IMG/VR virus record: IMGVR_UViG_2690316276_000009
Span: 1 to 8,906 of that record
DNA from: a virus
Lineage: Duplodnaviria > Heunggongvirae > Uroviricota > Caudoviricetes
DNA: 8,906 bases
Direction: 5' to 3' (one strand)
Part shown: positions 732 through 8,141 of the stretch, piece by piece
How positions within the stretch are numbered: the stretch's first letter is position 1
Layout of the letters: every line of letters starts with the position of its first letter
Notes under the pieces: generated by a model
Databases searched by the model: none
Told to the model about the DNA's origin: nothing
The model's input: only the letters and a program-made list of their open reading frames with translations
Program-made: the position numbers and the translations under genes

Positions 732-808
732 TGGCGCGCTGTACTGGATTCGAACCAGTGACCGATTGCTTAGAAGGCAATTGCTCTGTCCGGCTGAGCT
801 AACAACGC
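732..808 (-). tRNA. tRNA-Arg (anticodon UCU, reads AGA)
   Basis: Minus-strand sequence GCGTTGTTAGCTCAGCCGGACAGAGCAATTGCCTTCTAAGCAATCGGTCACTGGTTCGAATCCAGTACAGCGCGCCA folds by hand as a 77-nt cloverleaf: 7-bp acceptor stem with one G-U pair, D arm GCTC/GAGC, anticodon stem ATTGC/GCAAT with loop CTTCTAA (anticodon TCT), T arm ACTGG-TTCGAAT-CCAGT, encoded CCA. Lambdoid and Stx phages are known to carry rare-codon tRNA genes (ileZ/argN/argO) downstream of Q. Confidence 0.85.
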
Positions 809-930: not shown

Positions 931-1023
931 CAGGTCAACAGAATTTTCGGGTAACGACCGGATAAATTCCAGGCAGTCGGCGTTGATTAACTCACAACTG
1001 GATATTTTTACAGCATTAAGCAT
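931..1023 (-). CDS. DNA methyltransferase, N-terminal fragment truncated by the gap
   Basis: The minus-strand ORF starting at the ATG at 1021-1023 encodes MLNAVKISSCELINADCLEFIRSLPENSVDL and then enters the N run. The xxDCLExxxxLPxxSVDL stretch is the typical N-terminus of N6-adenine/N4-cytosine DNA methyltransferases, immediately preceding the DPPY motif, which would lie in the gap. Confidence 0.45.
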
Positions 1024-1160: not shown

Positions 1161-1187
1161 AATAAAAAAGCCTTCACTGCGGAAGGC
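1161..1187 (-). terminator. candidate rho-independent terminator after the 65-aa ORF
   Basis: Minus strand: stem GCCTTC / GAAGGC with a 6-nt loop, followed by TTTTTTATT. The hairpin overlaps the stop codon of the 1174-1371 ORF. Confidence 0.55.
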
Positions 1188-1371
1188 GTCTGTAACAACC
1201 GAACTGATAGTCTGCCAGACCCGCCATAACCAGCTGGGTCAGTATTAACTGGCAGCGTTCGCGTGAAAGGTAAGTATTCTGCGCTATCTCCCCGACTGTC
1301 GCCGGTTCGGTAACGCTTAATTCATTAAACACCACTCTGGCGGTTTCTGTCATATCCTGCTGTTTTAGCAT
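1174..1371 (-). CDS. small HTH-like protein (65 aa), hypothetical; possibly a PapI/FaeA-like winged-helix regulator
   Basis: ATG start preceded by AAAGGAAAAG (Shine-Dalgarno-like). The segment ATVGEIAQNTYLSRERCQLILTQLVMAGL has the pattern of a helix-turn-helix. Bracketed by terminator-like hairpins on both sides. The family assignment is a guess. Confidence 0.45.
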   Translation of the reverse strand: MLKQQDMTETARVVFNELSVTEPATVGEIAQNTYLSRERCQLILTQLVMAGLADYQFGCYRRLPQ

Positions 1372-1490
1372 GTCTTTTCCTTTTCCGGTTAACGTGACAC
1401 ACCAATAACTCTTGTCGAAAAAGCCAGCAAGCTGAAAGACAGGTATTCACCGCCACCAGCGCGTTTACTGTACTGACGCGATTTCAGTCA

Positions 1491-1515
1491 TAAAAAACCC
1501 GCTCGGCGGCGGGTT
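1491..1515 (-). terminator. candidate rho-independent terminator about 40 nt downstream of Q (tR'-like position)
   Basis: Minus strand: AACCCGC-CGCCGA-GCGGGTT hairpin followed by TTTTTTAT. In lambdoid phages the late promoter pR', the Q-utilisation site and terminator tR' lie just downstream of Q. Confidence 0.6.
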
Positions 1516-1554
1516 GTAGAAACTCTTCTAACGTCAGGCATAAAACGCCCATCG

Positions 1555-2409
1555 TTATGACGAATTTACCACAGATTCCGGAAAAATCAACCTAGTTACC
1601 TTTTTTAACTGCCGCTCAGCCCATGCTTCTTCAATATCAAACCGGGTCACCAGCGCATCATAGAATTTCTTAACTGTTTTTTCCCATGACGCGCGTGTTA
1701 TCTGGTTTGTCACCTCGCATATAGCATTAAATGCCTCCGTTGATGGTAGTCTTTCATAGCCACGACCACCACAACGCTGGCAGTCTCTGATAACAGGCAT
1801 ACCACGTTTTACCGACTCTTCACGATGAATGGCGACACCACGCCCACGGCAATCCTTACAGGCGGTGGAAACCTCACCCTTTCCGCCACACTCCGGACAG
1901 GCAACTTTTACCACCTCCCTGACTTTTTTCCATTCTTCCCAGTAAGACGGATACACACCTTTCGTACACTTTGCCCATACCGGCGGCTTACCATCCGGAT
2001 ACTGGACCTTGTTTGTAAAAACTACGCTTTCAATAAATTTTTCCCCATAGCAACAAGGGCACTGCTTTTTACTCGCTGCGCTGCGGGCATAATCCTCAAA
2101 AGCGTACGAAGCCATAATGCGCATCACTACCGGTTTTATTTCTGCCGGAAGTTTTCTCAACGCCGCCACACGATCGCACCGACTGAGTGCATAATCTGCC
2201 AGTAATTCTGTTGCCCGCGCCCTGTCATTCATACTGATGCCCATTTTCCCCAGGAACGCAGAAAACCCCATCTCAGCCCGATTCTGTGTCATGCCCTGCG
2301 CGGCCATCACATCAGTGATACTCAGCGCATCTTTTGACGTTGAGGCCGATGCATCGGTCAGGCAAGGGGATTTTGGGGAGTAGTATTTCGGTAAATCTTC
2401 CAGTTTCAT
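1555..2409 (-). CDS. Q: antitermination protein Q (lambda Q family), 284 aa, with expanded Cys-rich zinc-binding region
   Basis: The N-terminus (YSPKSP...TDVMAAQGM...ND) and C-terminus (KTVKKFYDALV) align by eye with lambda Q (YSPKSP...TDVMAAMGM...; VKPLYDALV). The central region carries CPCC plus three CxxCxGxG-type motifs (CPECGGKG, CKDCRGRG, CQRCGGRG). The start ATG overlaps the rusA stop (ATGA). Confidence 0.85.
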   Translation of the reverse strand: MKLEDLPKYYSPKSPCLTDASASTSKDALSITDVMAAQGMTQNRAEMGFSAFLGKMGISMNDRARATELLADYALSRCDRVAALRKLPAEIKPVVMRIMASYAFEDYARSAASKKQCPCCYGEKFIESVVFTNKVQYPDGKPPVWAKCTKGVYPSYWEEWKKVREVVKVACPECGGKGEVSTACKDCRGRGVAIHREESVKRGMPVIRDCQRCGGRGYERLPSTEAFNAICEVTNQITRASWEKTVKKFYDALVTRFDIEEAWAERQLKKVTRLIFPESVVNSS

Positions 2410-2882: not shown

Positions 2883-3628
2883 AATTTCTTAACTGTTTTT
2901 TCCCATGACGCGCGTGTTATCTGGTTTGTCACCTCGCATATAGCATTAAATGCCTCCGTTGATGGTAGTCTTTCATAGCCACGACCACCACAACGCTGGC
3001 AGTCTCTGATAACAGGCATACCACGTTTTACCGACTCTTCACGATGAATGGCGACACCACGCCCACGGCAATCCTTACAGGCGGTGGAAACCTCACCCTT
3101 TCCGCCACACTCCGGACAGGCAACTTTTACCACCTCCCTGACTTTTTTCCATTCTTCCCAGTAAGACGGATACACACCTTTCGTACACTTTGCCCATACC
3201 GGCGGCTTACCATCCGGATACTGGATCTTGTTTGTAAAAACCTCGCTTTCAATAAATTTTTTTCCGTGACAGCAGGGGCACTGTTTTTTGCTCGCCGCGC
3301 TACGGGCATAATCTTCAAACGCATACGAAGCCATAATACGCATCACTGCCGGTTTTATTTCTGCCGGGAGTTTTCTTAACGCCGCCACGCGATCACACCG
3401 ACTGAGTGCATATTCTGTCAGCAATTCTGTTGCCCGCTCTCTGTCATTCATACTAATGCCCATTTTCCCAAGGAACGCAGAAACCCCCATCTCAGCCCGA
3501 TTCTGTGTCATGCCCTGCGCGGCCATCACATCAGTGATACTCAGCGCATCTTTTGACGTTGAGGCCGATGCATCGGTCAGGCAAGGGGATTTTGGGGAGT
3601 AGTATTTCGGTAAATCTTCCAGTTTCAT
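2883..3628 (-). pseudogene. antitermination protein Q paralogue, 3' end missing and fused in frame across the N at 2882 to the preceding fragment
   Basis: The track ORF 2780-3628 encodes Q residues 1-250 and then ...KTVKKXHRAQKAVDELVDCVAELETRVGKFEKLVQEVLR, which is the C-terminus of the 3999-4256 ORF. The true Q C-terminus (FYDALVTRF...) is absent. Confidence 0.65.
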
Positions 3629-3999
3629 TTTTTGACCTGCTCTTCATGCATTATGGGGTAAATCTTCACCCCCAGACGTCCACCAGATACTGGCTGACCA
3701 CGAACGATATTGATTTCATCAAACTGCTCATCGTCCATTAACACTCCCGCATGTGTCAGTGCATCCAGTGGTGCTTTCAGGATATTGTCCAGGTCACGAC
3801 GGCGCTTATCCGGTGGCTCTGCAATAATCTTTATCGCCAGTCTTCCGGACAGGCTTAATTTCAGTCGCTGCTGACGGACAATAAGCGCCACATCCCGGCG
3901 ATAACGCTCACCGGCTTTTGATACAAAATATGTGTTGTCACGACGTCGCCAGTAAGTATTCACCGTCGGCGGATAAGGTAAAATAAACTCATGGCGCAT
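3625..3999 (-). CDS. rusA: RusA Holliday junction resolvase (second copy, protein identical to 2406-2780)
   Basis: Protein identical to the 2406-2780 copy; same overlap with the downstream Q start. Confidence 0.85.
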   Translation of the reverse strand: MRHEFILPYPPTVNTYWRRRDNTYFVSKAGERYRRDVALIVRQQRLKLSLSGRLAIKIIAEPPDKRRRDLDNILKAPLDALTHAGVLMDDEQFDEINIVRGQPVSGGRLGVKIYPIMHEEQVKK

Positions 4000-4241: not shown

Positions 4242-4467
4242 TGTCTGGTTGTTCAAAAGAAACGCTCCATCTTACTGCTGTCAGTTCGTTTATTACTGTA
4301 TCTGCGCGGATTGCCGGGCTTCATGGGAGTGGAAAGCACCCGTGCACTTTCCTGGTCCACAGGCAGAAAATGTCCGTAGACTGGCCCCCTGAATCTCCAG
4401 ACAACCAGTATCACTTAAATAAGTGATAGTCTTAATACTAGTTTTTAGACTAGTCATTGGAGTACAG

Positions 4468-4833
4468 ATGATTGATGTCTTAGGGCCGGAGAAACGCAGA
4501 CGGCGTACCACACAGGAAAAGATCGCAATTGTTCAGCAGAGCTTTGAACCGGGGATGACGGTCTCCCTCGTTGCCCGGCAACATGGTGTAGCAGCCAGCC
4601 AGTTATTTCTCTGGCGTAAGCAATACCAGGAAGGAAGTCTTACTGCTGTCGCCGCCGGAGAACAGGTTGTTCCTGCCTCTGAACTTGCTGCCGCCATGAA
4701 GCAGATTAAAGAACTCCAGCGCCTGCTCGGCAAGAAAACGATGGAAAATGAACTCCTCAAAGAAGCCGTTGAATATGGACGGGCAAAAAAGTGGATAGCG
4801 CACGCGCCCTTATTGCCCGGGGATGGGGAGTAA
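4468..4833 (+). CDS. insC: IS2 transposase OrfA (InsC), 121 aa
   Basis: [54 protein letters not shown]... is the IS2 InsC sequence. The A6G slippery heptamer AAAAAAG at 4785-4791 is the known -1 frameshift site that produces the InsCD fusion. Confidence 0.85.
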
Positions 4834-5197
4834 GCTTAGTCAGCCGTTGTCTCCGGGTGTCGCGTGCGCAGTTGCACGTCATTCTCAGACGAACCGATGA
4901 CTGGATGGATGGCCGCCGCAGTCGTCACACTGATGATACGGATGTGCTTCTCCGTATACACCATGTTATCGGAGAGCTGCCCACGTATGGTTATCGTCGG
5001 GTATGGGCGCTGCTTCGCAGACAGGCAGAACTTGATGGTATGCCTGCGATCAATGCCAAACGTGTTTACCGGATCATGCGCCAGAATGCGCTGTTGCTTG
5101 AGCGAAAACCTGCTGTACCGCCATCGAAACGGGCACATACAGGCAGAGTGGCCGTGAAAGAAAGCAATCAGCGATGGTGCTCTGACGGGTTCGAGTT
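4791..5197 (+). pseudogene. insD: IS2 transposase OrfB (InsD), N-terminal about 135 codons only
   Basis: [41 protein letters not shown]... matches the InsD N-terminus. The reading frame leaves IS2 sequence at the N at 5198 and continues as the antisense of the Q fragment. Confidence 0.75.
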
Positions 5198-5198
5198 N

Positions 5199-5431
5199 CA
5201 CCGACTGAGTGCATATTCTGTCAGCAATTCTGTTGCCCGCTCTCTGTCATTCATACTAATGCCCATTTTCCCAAGGAACGCAGAAACCCCCATCTCAGCC
5301 CGATTCTGTGTCATGCCCTGCGCGGCCATCACATCAGTGATACTCAGCGCATCTTTCGACGTTGAGGCCGATGCATCAGTCAGGCCGGGGGATTTTGGGG
5401 AGTAGTATTTCGGTAAATCTTCCAGTTTCAT
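5199..5431 (-). pseudogene. antitermination protein Q, N-terminal fragment (about 77 codons), third copy
   Basis: Encodes MKLEDLPKYYSPKSPGLTDASAS...TEYALSR, matching Q copy B except for C16G, then stops being Q at the N at 5198 where IS2 sequence begins. Confidence 0.7.
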
Positions 5432-5808
5432 TTTTTGACCTGCCCTTCAAGCATTATGGGATAAATCTTCACCCCCAGACGTCCACCAGATACTGGCTGA
5501 GCACGAACGATATTGATTTCATCAAACTGCTCATCGTCCATTAGCAACCCCGCATGCGTCAGCGCATCCAGCGGCGCTTTCAGAATATTGTCCAGGTCAC
5601 GGCGGCGCTTATCCGGTGGTTCTGCAATAATTTTTATTGCCAACCTTCCGGACAGGCTTAATTTCAGCCGCTGCTGGCGAACAATAAGCGCCACTGCCCG
5701 GCGATAACGCTCCCCGGCTTTTGATACAAAATATGTGCTGCCACGACGACGCCAGTAAGTGTTCACCGTCGGCGGGTAAGGTAAAACAAATTCTATGCGC
5801 TCGGTCAT
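5428..5808 (-). CDS. rusA: RusA Holliday junction resolvase, divergent paralogue (126 aa)
   Basis: Same RusA core (RRRDLDN...DDEQF) with a different N-terminus (MTERIEFVLPYPP) and several substitutions. Start abuts the stop of the DUF968 gene. Confidence 0.85.
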   Translation of the reverse strand: MTERIEFVLPYPPTVNTYWRRRGSTYFVSKAGERYRRAVALIVRQQRLKLSLSGRLAIKIIAEPPDKRRRDLDNILKAPLDALTHAGLLMDDEQFDEINIVRAQPVSGGRLGVKIYPIMLEGQVKK

Positions 5809-6867
5809 TTATGCTTTCCACTTCAGAACACCCGAATTTCTCGCGTGCATTAAAAAACGAATCAGCAACAACAGCTGACTGCCGTGTTTCTCTTCAAAAT
5901 CTTTTACTCCGGCATGTAGTTCGTTACGGCATTTACGGCATAACGGAATAACAAACAAATCATCAGCCTTTGTTCCCATCCCTCCCAGTCCATGACCAAT
6001 GATGTGATGCGGATCATCTGCCTGATTGCCACACGTCATGCATTTCTGCGTTTTTACCCAGCGCGTGTATACAGGCATCTCTTCCCGTTGTGATTTCTGG
6101 CGCTGGAGATACTGAGCCGGTGACTCCGGATCAACGGCAATGCTGACCACCGTCTTTTCCTGTGGTGGGTTCTGTTGCTGGTGGACGTGAGGCAGTAACG
6201 CAATATTTTTTGTGCGCTGCTTCAGTATGCTGGTGGCTGTCTGCTCTCCCGGTATGATGTCGCTTTCACTGTACACAGAGCGAATTTTTTCCGCACGCAA
6301 CCCCAGCGAACGACGTAATACCGCTTCCGGTAGCGCGTCCGCCACCTGATTGCGGACCGCCCACCAGGATAATTCAGCCAGAGATAATTCACGCTCCTGC
6401 GTACCGCTTATTGCGTGACCGATGACGTCAATCATCCATGCTGACAGGTTTTGATGAGCAAGTTGCTCGAGTGATTCGGATGTCTGGTCACGCAGCTGGT
6501 TGTCGCAGTGCCAGCACAACACCATTGCGCCGGTACCATAACGGTGAATGACGGTTTCGCTGTGATGATAATCGCCGTGTGGCCACTGGCAGGATTTAAT
6601 ATGGCGCAACAGCCAGTCAGACAATGCACCAGCACCACCAGCAGCACGAATCACCCGTGCGTTACTGAAAAACGGCAGCAATGTTTTGTCTTCCACCAGC
6701 GGCTGGCGAGCGGCAGGAACGACCCCGGACGGCAGATTACGCATGCTTTTTGGTTCCGGCTCCACCAGTATTCTGCCGTTATGGAATGCTGACATTGATT
6801 CACGGCCTGGCTTAACGATAACCAGACCGAGTTCCGGTACCAGAACAGGTCGAAGTAATACCCGCAC
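5809..6867 (-). CDS. DUF968-type phage protein with C-terminal HNH-like Cys/His motif (YdfU-like), 352 aa from GTG
   Basis: GTG start preceded by GGAGGT at good spacing; alternative ATG at 6795. C-terminus CMTCGNQADDPHHIIGHGLGG...LCRKCRNELH looks like an HNH/zinc-finger nuclease motif. Position upstream of the Q-side genes parallels ydfU next to quuQ in the Qin prophage. Family assignment from recall, not a search. Confidence 0.6.
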   Translation of the reverse strand: MRVLLRPVLVPELGLVIVKPGRESMSAFHNGRILVEPEPKSMRNLPSGVVPAARQPLVEDKTLLPFFSNARVIRAAGGAGALSDWLLRHIKSCQWPHGDYHHSETVIHRYGTGAMVLCWHCDNQLRDQTSESLEQLAHQNLSAWMIDVIGHAISGTQERELSLAELSWWAVRNQVADALPEAVLRRSLGLRAEKIRSVYSESDIIPGEQTATSILKQRTKNIALLPHVHQQQNPPQEKTVVSIAVDPESPAQYLQRQKSQREEMPVYTRWVKTQKCMTCGNQADDPHHIIGHGLGGMGTKADDLFVIPLCRKCRNELHAGVKDFEEKHGSQLLLLIRFLMHARNSGVLKWKA

Positions 6868-7694: not shown

Positions 7695-7850
7695 TTACTC
7701 CTCAGGTTCGTAAGCTGTGAAGACAGCGACCTCCGTCTGGCCGGTTCGAATTCGTACCTCGCAGAGGTCTTTCCTCGTTACCAGTGCCGTCACTATGACG
7801 GTTAAACAGATGACGATCAGGGCGATTAACATCGCCTTTTGCTGCTTCAT
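7695..7850 (-). CDS. hokD: Hok/Gef-family membrane toxin, HokD/RelF-like (51 aa)
   Basis: MKQQKAMLIALIVICLTVIVTALVTRKDLCEVRIRTGQTEVAVFTAYEPEE matches HokD/RelF as I recall it and has the Hok signature (hydrophobic helix, then TRK.LCE.R). AAGGAG lies 9 nt before this ATG. The track ORF extends 19 codons upstream in frame to an ATG at 7907. Confidence 0.85.
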   Translation of the reverse strand: MKQQKAMLIALIVICLTVIVTALVTRKDLCEVRIRTGQTEVAVFTAYEPEE

Positions 7851-8141
7851 AGCCTGCTTCTCCTTGCCTTTCGGCACGTAAGAGGCTAACCTAGATTTGC
7901 CGTTCATAGATTGAGCCTCAGATTAATGTTAAGCGTCTTGCCGGACGCGTAATGTTAACTGGGGCTTTTCTCTATCTGCCTTTTGGTGTTCATGCCTGAG
8001 ACAGATAGCCTCAAGCACCCGCTGCAATTCTACTTAACTCTCCTTTTCCCGCAAACCGTTTTTATCCCCAGCGGCAAATCGAATACACCACCAGCGCCAC
8101 CGCCATCGCAATTCCTACCGTTGTTAATGCTTCAGGCCAGG

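Follow-up and report, generated by a model that had tools for sequence, protein, structure and literature searches.

The window analysed here, a stretch of 8,906 nucleotides, carries a gene whose product belongs to the lambda-type Q antiterminator family. We read it, with a probability of roughly three in four, as a late-gene antiterminator of a long-arm subtype, in which a second Cys4 module sits at the hinge of the arm and which would work by a lambda-like mechanism. The gene itself is an annotated and common antiterminator that does not overturn the known mechanism; what lambda's own Q lacks is the second, zinc-ribbon-like module, as predicted from modelling. Q proteins set the timing of the lysis genes in lambdoid prophages and of the toxin genes in Stx phages and, to our knowledge, structural and mechanistic work on the Q-lambda family has all been carried out on lambda Q.

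Reading frame and allele

The sole long open reading frame (ORF) at 1555-2409 in the ORF list lies on the minus strand, with an ATG at 2409 and a TAA at 1557-1555. An intact ORF is thus found where the earlier note had placed it, with the correction that the gene runs on the minus strand; a plus-strand reading was ruled out, its translation being riddled with stops. The length given there, 284 aa against 207 aa for lambda Q, is that of the intact ORF, but the family norm is 273 aa and the remaining 11 aa stem from the loss of a repeat.

1555-2409, minus strand: Q antiterminator ORF, 284 aa plus stop (family norm 273 aa, ending at nucleotide 1591)
1555-1590, minus strand: read-through tail LIFPESVVNSS plus TAA, from comparison of 81 related loci

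Across these 81 loci, an 8-bp repeat (GTAACTAG/GTAACAAG) is present in one copy in the window allele and in two copies, including the TAA stop, in the usual allele. The latter, found in 80 related viral contigs, reads ...GTAACTAGGTAACAAGGTTGATT with its TAA stop and yields a 273-aa protein; one related locus has three copies of the 8-bp unit. Loss of one copy removes the usual stop, so that the Q ORF runs through its own promoter to a TAA overlapping the AACGAT element described below, and the last 11 of the 284 residues are coded by the late promoter itself. The related loci come from a single-protein scan and are all at least 95% identical, which makes them informative on the stop-codon polymorphism and not on the diversity of Q-binding elements (QBE). 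E. coli TK3889 has the identical read-through allele, annotated there with a length of 284 aa. The tail is a property of this allele and not of lambda Q, in which residues 202 and 206 contact the flap-tip helix (PMC9388147); an extension at this end of the protein could therefore alter its activity.

Family membership and predicted fold

The protein matches Pfam PF03589 ('Antitermination protein Q') at 183.6 bits, for a cut-off of 26.7 (E 7e-55). Its best match among PDB sequences is lambda Q (7ubm/7ubn, phmmer E 1.8e-40), in two colinear blocks of about 30% identity: residues 1-113 align with lambda Q 1-113, and residues 182-273 with lambda 116-207. The protein can thus be described as lambda Q plus 68 residues (114-181) at a single position. 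PHROG 127 ('anti-termination protein Q-like'), which contains both lambda Q and the window protein, is matched at 1e-110 over residues 1-273. Since lambda Q matches the 253 positions of this profile in two pieces, the long arm is built into the family profile itself.

The AlphaFold2 (AF2) model of the 273-aa form, computed with a homologue alignment, has a pLDDT of 88.7 and a pTM of 0.76. When it was compared to the PDB using Foldseek, significant matches were to Q-lambda entries only, the best being 7ubn_Q, the NusA-engaged form (E 4.7e-15, TM 0.83 normalised to lambda, rmsd 3.8 Å). A fold search of BFVD returned nothing significant, lambda Q included. The assignment to the lambda Q family made in the earlier note is therefore borne out by the Pfam score, the PDB sequence match and the predicted fold. 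Q21 (PF06530) and Q82 (PF06323) share the regulatory role and lambdoid gene position of Q-lambda (PMC9388147). They are analogues of the window protein and not relatives: neither gave a Pfam match at E <= 0.01, and no Q21 appeared among the listed PDB fold matches.

In Q-lambda, residues 61-113 and 153-207 form the body, a four-helix bundle with a helix-turn-helix, and residues 114-152 form the arm, a zinc ribbon made of helix 3 and strands 1 and 2 (PMC9388147). The N-terminal segment is disordered alone; with NusA it forms a torus, or nozzle, at the RNA-exit channel, residues 1-44 folding upon NusA binding (PMC9388147). AF2 and Foldseek predict the architecture of the Q-lambda family for the window protein as well, a four-helix-bundle body with a helix-turn-helix and a zinc-ribbon arm. 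Body, helix-turn-helix, zinc-ribbon arm and N-terminal segment are thus shared, as predicted, with lambda Q (PDB 4MO1, 7UBJ-7UBN; PF03589), whose gene is likewise positioned after the nin/rusA region. The protein divides as follows:

2230-2409, minus strand: residues 1-60, corresponding to the N-terminal segment of lambda Q, colinear with lambda 1-60, G39 conserved
2071-2229, minus strand: residues 61-113, first half of the four-helix body, aligned to lambda 61-113
1867-2070, minus strand: residues 114-181, extra module not in lambda Q, a gap in the lambda alignment (pLDDT 76-92)
1750-1866, minus strand: residues 182-220, lambda-type zinc-ribbon arm, equivalent to lambda 116-154 (HMMER)
1591-1749, minus strand: residues 221-273, second body half including the helix-turn-helix region, aligned to lambda 155-207

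Residues 1-60 align to lambda 1-60 and the model is nearest to the engaged conformation (7ubn_Q). The predicted helices of the body span residues 60-80, 82-85 and 92-108 in its first half, and 223-231 and 239-272 in its second half, which ends in ...KKVTR (compare ...NAVTR in lambda).

An extra cysteine module at the hinge

Four cysteine motifs are found in the arm:

2050-2061, minus strand: Cys motif 1, CPCC, residues 117-120 (C117, C120), in the extra segment
1876-1899, minus strand: Cys motif 2, CPECGGKG, residues 171-178 (C171, C174), in the extra segment, with weak anti-TRAP/DnaJ motif matches
1837-1860, minus strand: Cys motif 3, CKDCRGRG, residues 184-191 (C184, C187), equal to lambda C118/C121
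1759-1782, minus strand: Cys motif 4, CQRCGGRG, residues 210-217 (C210, C213), equal to lambda C144/C147

The earlier note had assigned all four motifs to the insertion. All four are present in the protein, but only motifs 1 and 2 lie within residues 114-181. Motifs 3 and 4 align to the lambda zinc ligands with an identical 26-residue spacing in the HMMER alignment, and hence correspond to the ordinary Q zinc ribbon. No change is seen in any of the eight cysteines, nor in G176, G189, G215 or G217, across 56 homologues (25-91% identical to the window protein), in an alignment whose mean column identity is only 52%. Because of this invariance, the Cys-rich insertion stands well beyond chance, and the addition to lambda Q's single zinc ribbon, proposed in the earlier note, is genuine and conserved. 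Motif 3 is shortened from CxxC to CxC in many homologues, both cysteines being retained.

The 68-aa extra segment contains 17 residue types and nine aromatics, with a net charge of +4, and is not of low complexity. The possibility raised earlier, that the cysteines all belong to an ordinary Q finger and that the additional length is a low-complexity linker, does not hold: the segment is diverse in composition and has predicted beta structure, and motifs 1 and 2 are additional to the lambda finger. In the AF2 model, the extra module comprises a strand at 114-116, a knuckle at C117-C120, a strand at 125-136, a loop with short helices (pLDDT 76-78), a strand at 159-170, a second knuckle at C171-C174 and a strand at 179-181. 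Motifs 1 and 2 thus border two equal 12-residue strands, with short strands outside, and the two beta-hairpins, each with a CxxC turn, make up a zinc-ribbon pattern. The lambda-type arm that follows is modelled as a knuckle (C184-C187), a strand (192-194), a helix (196-202), a strand (207-209) and a knuckle (C210-C213). A model of the arm only (residues 108-226, pLDDT 77.8) superposes on the lambda arm over 43 columns with 37% identity and an rmsd of 1.4-1.6 Å using Foldseek; a hand count over the HMMER alignment of residues 182-224 with lambda 116-158 also gives 37%. In the model, therefore, it is motifs 3 and 4 that make up lambda's zinc site.

Based on this superposition and on the strand pattern, we predict two tandem Cys4 modules, pairing motifs 1 with 2 and 3 with 4. 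The second zinc ribbon for which the earlier note had suggested a structure prediction is thus obtained, in the form of a zinc-ribbon-like module that bears a long beta-hairpin and precedes the lambda-type ribbon in tandem. We infer that C117, C120, C171 and C174 bind zinc. One homologue (P0192) retains only a motif-2-like pair and motif 4, and fits neither this pairing nor the interleaved one considered last. When the extra module alone was submitted to Foldseek, matches were insignificant (eS26, UvrA, DnaJA2, BSD2).

Given the lambda boundaries between body and arm, the extra module is inserted exactly at the body/arm hinge. Relative to lambda Q, the arm grows from 39 to 107 residues, the 68 hinge residues bringing a predicted second Cys4 site and the long beta-hairpin. 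In Q-lambda, the arm swings by about 75 degrees to QBE positions 11-13, its tip (133-137) contacts sigma region 4, and residues 110-112, 117 and 122-126 contact the beta' zinc-binding domain (PMC9388147). Counterparts of the beta'-contact residues are kept in the window protein (SAA at 110-112 and RGRGV at 188-192), and the extra module lies between them. From its position, it is plausible that the insertion changes the engagement of RNA polymerase or of the Q-utilisation site (qut). Searches of the literature on QuuQ/ydfT, Q and zinc, Q and DnaJ, and PF03589, incomplete in coverage and thus a weak negative, returned no description of a two-zinc Q arm.

Long arms are common among Q proteins

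The exact 284-aa protein is recorded as 'antitermination protein [Shigella sonnei] / MULTISPECIES [Shigella]' on at least 1000 contigs. At 80% identity or more, the DNA is present in 2495 of 5426 complete E. coli genomes (46%), where it is annotated as 'antitermination protein' beside rusA. In complete genomes and in phage mEp460, the gene comes after rusA and before tRNAs and lysis genes; the contig of the window ends before the latter. The gene is thus already catalogued and common, and its long-arm subtype includes the Q proteins of mEp460, mEp237 and ES18 and YdfT of E. coli K-12.

YdfT (QuuQ, b1559, 250 aa), from the cryptic prophage Qin, is 40% identical to the window protein over its full length and bears the same four Cys motifs, as CEHC, CQHC, CRGC and CGRC. 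AACGAT-GGG and a terminator are present downstream of its gene, in a hokD/DUF968 neighborhood as in the window. It differs by a hairpin between motifs 1 and 2 that is 19 residues shorter, by the sequence of the promoter spacer and by the lack of rusA between the DUF968 gene and Q. It is annotated only as 'putative antitermination protein Q', and we found no functional study of YdfT/QuuQ in a literature search of incomplete coverage. A long arm with four Cys pairs is also observed in the Q proteins of mEp460 (98.9% identical), mEp237 (54%), Erwinia phage Midgardsormr38 (48%) and ES18 (gp73, 43%), all annotated by similarity only. Motif 3 is CxC in ES18 and many others, and hairpin length varies among the long-arm Qs of phages.

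To survey arm lengths, we screened 150 cluster representatives at 50% identity, in 26 of which both body halves could be located. Lengths in these 26 are bimodal: six arms have 39 aa and two Cys pairs, and twenty have 65-111 aa and four pairs. No arm of intermediate length or with three Cys pairs occurs among the 26; one 57-aa arm exists outside this set. Length varies between motifs 1 and 2, in a stretch of 10 to about 60 residues that is poorly conserved at its tip. In an evenly spaced sample drawn from a ranking of 249 matching phage records, about half have long arms. The search for this subtype across prophages suggested earlier thus finds it widespread, and the word 'expanded', implying an unusual protein, does not fit a family in which lambda Q carries the shortest arm and long arms account for most of the diversity sampled. 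Judging from the arm-length survey and a tree, both weak evidence on this point, the polarity is probably the reverse, with lambda Q as the minimal member.

A further step would be to hypothesize that the two-zinc arm is ancestral as well as prevailing, that lambda Q is a deletion derivative produced by recombination between motifs 1 and 3, as repeats of CxxCxGxG type, and that the extra ribbon and hairpin make a contact missing in lambda, be it to the beta' zinc-binding domain, to the flap, to DNA between the two QBE half-sites or elsewhere. A neighbor-joining tree of the body regions is star-like and bears no support values; midpoint rooting leaves long arms on either side of the root, with lambda branching close to the base of a long-arm clade, which is suggestive only. 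We put this scenario forward tentatively, as a possibility rather than an expectation. If it were true, the way in which long-arm Qs load would differ measurably from that of lambda Q, for instance through an arm that is rigid and extended beforehand or through a changed dependence on NusA.

A late promoter, pause element and terminator at the end of the gene

Promoter, candidate QBE, pause element and terminator follow the Q gene at 1590-1490, in an arrangement closely resembling that of lambda pR':

1585-1590, minus strand: -35 hexamer TTGATT of a pR'-like late promoter, from lambda pR' comparison, conserved in related loci
1569-1584, minus strand: 16-nt spacer TTTCCGGAATCTGTGG, candidate Q-binding element from its position in the promoter spacer
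1563-1568, minus strand: -10 hexamer TAAATT, identical to lambda pR'
1551-1556, minus strand: AACGAT, matching lambda exactly, a -10-like element for sigma-dependent pausing where the transcript is predicted to start
1490-1515, minus strand: intrinsic terminator from a terminator scan, stem 1515-1496 followed by T6

The cassette reads TTGATT-N16-TAAATT-CGTCAT-AACGAT-GGG and then the terminator, where lambda pR' reads TTGACT-N17-TAAATT-TGACTC-AACGAT-GGG: the two share one layout, with no difference in the -10 and pause elements. Elements of the AACGAT type act in sigma-dependent pausing (PMC9388147). A consensus promoter scan of 931-1700 called no promoter, and the promoter was placed by the lambda pR' comparison. 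The terminator, a 7-bp stem (five G-C pairs) with its T6, lies about 65 nt past the predicted start, and its RNA folds at -21.9 kcal/mol (z = -2.4). The leader up to the terminator is thus shorter than that of lambda, which is 194 nt. No Rfam family was matched by the short leader RNA.

The cassette is conserved in the 80 related loci, K-12 Qin, mEp237 and an Stx2c phage, and the terminator in K-12 Qin as well. The spacer follows a narrower pattern. It is conserved as TTTCCCGAATCTGTGT in mEp237 and as TTTCCCGAAACTGCGG in Midgardsormr38, the three sharing TTTCCsGAAwCTG, and differs in lambda (where it has 17 nt instead of 16), K-12 Qin, ES18 and the Stx2c phage. This distribution fits a Q-binding element co-varying with Q type, and makes TTTCCGGAATCTGTGG a candidate binding element of the window Q. 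The lambda QBE is likewise located in the promoter spacer.

Proposed mechanism and role of the extra module

On the lambda model, Q would bind the QBE in the spacer of the late promoter that begins at the 3' end of its own gene, and there meet an RNA polymerase held by sigma70 at the AACGAT pause element. With NusA, the N-terminal residues (about 45) would fold into a ring at the RNA-exit channel, enabling polymerase to pass the terminator about 65 nt farther on, as well as those beyond it. The arm would present first the new Cys4 module with its length-variable hairpin and then the lambda-type ribbon, where lambda has one 39-residue ribbon. The extra module may stiffen or extend the hinge and add a surface for contacts with polymerase or promoter DNA, thereby tuning the specificity of loading with the mechanism unchanged. 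If it does contact polymerase or DNA, the lambda loading model is incomplete for most natural Qs, including those of Shigella and E. coli prophages.

We may also ask whether the extra module is a functionally neutral decoration, real as a structure but tolerated because its hairpin points to solvent, with specificity and loading set by the helix-turn-helix body, lambda-type ribbon and N-terminal segment alone. Lambda Q works without it, the layout of promoter, pause element and terminator is identical for long- and short-arm Qs, and the hairpin varies in length and has a poorly conserved tip. However, the two extra Cys pairs and their flanking glycines stay invariant down to 25% identity, three-pair intermediates are missing from the 26 classified representatives, and a location between lambda's contacts with the beta' zinc-binding domain is hard to square with no effect. 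We therefore consider a neutral module improbable.

Prophage context

The window has been scaffolded from short contigs (46 N at 885-930, one N each at positions 2882 and 5198) and contains three rusA-Q copies, two of which are cut at scaffold joins. A genuine tandem triplication of rusA-Q was rejected, as copy boundaries coincide with the single-N positions. The window also holds an IS2-like fragment, hok/sok, a DUF968 gene and a tRNA-Arg. Many of the carriers are cryptic Qin-like prophages.

Such surroundings raise the question of whether the gene has become inactive, a relic within a prophage in decay and ridden with IS elements, with its stop lost and late genes no longer under its control. 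The Qin-like context (hok/sok, DUF968, rusA), the IS2-like fragment with two truncated Q copies and the 8-bp deletion of the stop codon all point this way. Against decay, the ORF is intact and keeps every conserved residue, and -35, -10, pause element and terminator are intact too. Furthermore, occurrence of the identical 284-aa protein on so many contigs indicates a stable allele, and the truncations of copies 2 and 3, at single-N joins, are probably assembly breaks. A relic thus seems unlikely to us, and we retain the reading of a long-arm late-gene antiterminator.

Resemblance to DnaJ

The earlier note had likened the cysteine repeats to those of DnaJ. At the level of motifs this is correct: the window protein shares with the DnaJ cysteine-rich domain (PF00684) and with anti-TRAP both CxxCxGxG motifs and Cys4 zinc sites formed from knuckle pairs. 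The likeness does not extend further. PF00684 (DnaJ_CXXCXGXG) scores 29.2 bits, below its cut-off of 32.7, over residues 171-218 and motifs 2-4 only; TIGR02349 (DnaJ) and anti-TRAP give weak matches across motifs 2 and 3; and DnaJ and DnaJA2 structures fit the model at E 0.47-2.4 and rmsd 10-11 Å in Foldseek. Since the single ribbon of lambda Q, which has CxxCxGxG motifs of its own, gives a similarly weak DnaJ match, the resemblance belongs to the whole Q-lambda family.

In DnaJ, the sites are interleaved (1+4, 2+3) in a V-shaped hairpin fold, unlike the tandem sites predicted here. An interleaved arrangement in the window protein, 1+4 being lambda's zinc site and 2+3 an added distal site, could draw on the CxxCxG(x)G type of all four motifs, on the sub-threshold Pfam match, on a 13-residue distance between motifs 2 and 3 as in anti-TRAP together with the weak TIGR02349/anti-TRAP matches, on the first Cys pair of lambda being as far from the body helix as motif 1 (C118 versus C117), and on the name 'chaperone protein DnaJ' given to such proteins in some database entries. 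This pairing is nevertheless very unlikely, for besides the low Pfam score and the poor fit of DnaJ structures, lambda's strand-helix-strand is matched by the sequence after motif 3 and not after motif 1, motifs 3 and 4 keep lambda's spacing and superpose on its ribbon, and the two 12-residue strands draw motifs 1 and 2 together. In precomputed Pfam annotation, long-arm Q proteins are assigned PF00684, and also PF27659.

A conserved spacer and a variable repeat at the end of Q

The late promoter of the window lies on the minus strand at the 3' end of Q copy 1 (2409-1555), and its spacer (window 1569-1584) follows the consensus TTTCCsGAAwCTGyGk. E. coli and Shigella prophages share this spacer with mEp237 and with an Erwinia phage (loci L085, L088), phages with Q proteins of only 48-54% identity. 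It also contains a near-palindrome, TTCCGGAA. Judged from sequence, the late-promoter spacer is a candidate for the Q-binding element of this Q subgroup.

Directly upstream of the -35 element, an 8-bp tandem repeat (GTAACTAG/GTAACAAG; window 1585-1600, minus strand) spans the Q stop codon. The copy number of this repeat is 1, 2 or 3 across the compared loci L002-L083. The window allele has a single copy, which deletes the Q stop and adds 11 amino acids encoded by the promoter.

Repeated rusA-Q modules and scaffold joins

The window has a scaffold structure, with a 46-N gap at 885-930 and single-N joins at 2882 and 5198. The rusA-Q module occurs three times, as seen from the repeats 2177-2476, 3396-3695 and 5199-5498. 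Besides copy 1, these include two truncated Q genes, the second of which adjoins a transposase fragment ending at the 5198 join:

2883-3628: Q copy 2, 3' end missing, nine residue differences from copy 1
5199-5431: Q copy 3, codons 1-77 only
4423-5197, plus strand: IS2/IS3-family transposase fragment (HTH_Tnp_1, 2.4e-19; HTH_21, 2.7e-11)

Because the cut points coincide with N joins, both truncations are probably assembly breaks, falling in DNA repeated among several prophages; on the same ground, a true tandem triplication of rusA-Q is disfavoured.

Genes downstream of Q and elsewhere in the window

Several features are observed beyond the late terminator:

1174-1371, minus strand: 65-aa ORF
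1187-1170: terminator belonging to this ORF
931-1023, minus strand: start of a further ORF, interrupted by the N gap
732-808, minus strand: tRNA-Arg (anticodon TCT)

The 65-aa ORF has a weak winged-helix (TrmB-like) match, sub-threshold at 18.0 bits (cut-off 25.6); several IMG/VR contigs, L074 among them, carry this ORF and the sequence downstream of it. In its position the tRNA-Arg gene resembles the tRNA genes that follow the late promoter of Qin-like and Stx-type prophages.

Two further minus-strand features were identified:

7695-8020, minus strand: hok/sok type I toxin-antitoxin locus, comprising a Hok/Gef peptide (PF01848, 3e-23) and sok RNA (Rfam RF01794, 112 bits)
5809-6867, minus strand: DUF968/HNH protein (YdfU-like), 352 aa, upstream of rusA

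Unusual Q homologues and Q labels

A precomputed Pfam match, PF27659.1, is present on most long-arm Q proteins, those with four Cys motifs (database proteins P0001-P0120). One Q family member of 223 aa, P0192, has an arm of 57 aa retaining only a motif-2-like CPQC and motif 4 (CPRC), with IILAAGAG in the position of motif 3. Its Cys pattern fits neither the tandem (1+2/3+4) nor the interleaved (1+4/2+3) pairing scheme, and this protein may be degenerate.

In phage mEp460_ev081, the equivalent of the DUF968/HNH gene bears the label 'Phage antitermination protein Q', apparently through an annotation error or as a putative claim. Some database proteins, such as P0200, seem to combine DUF968 with the Q C-terminus, either as fusions or through merged gene calls.
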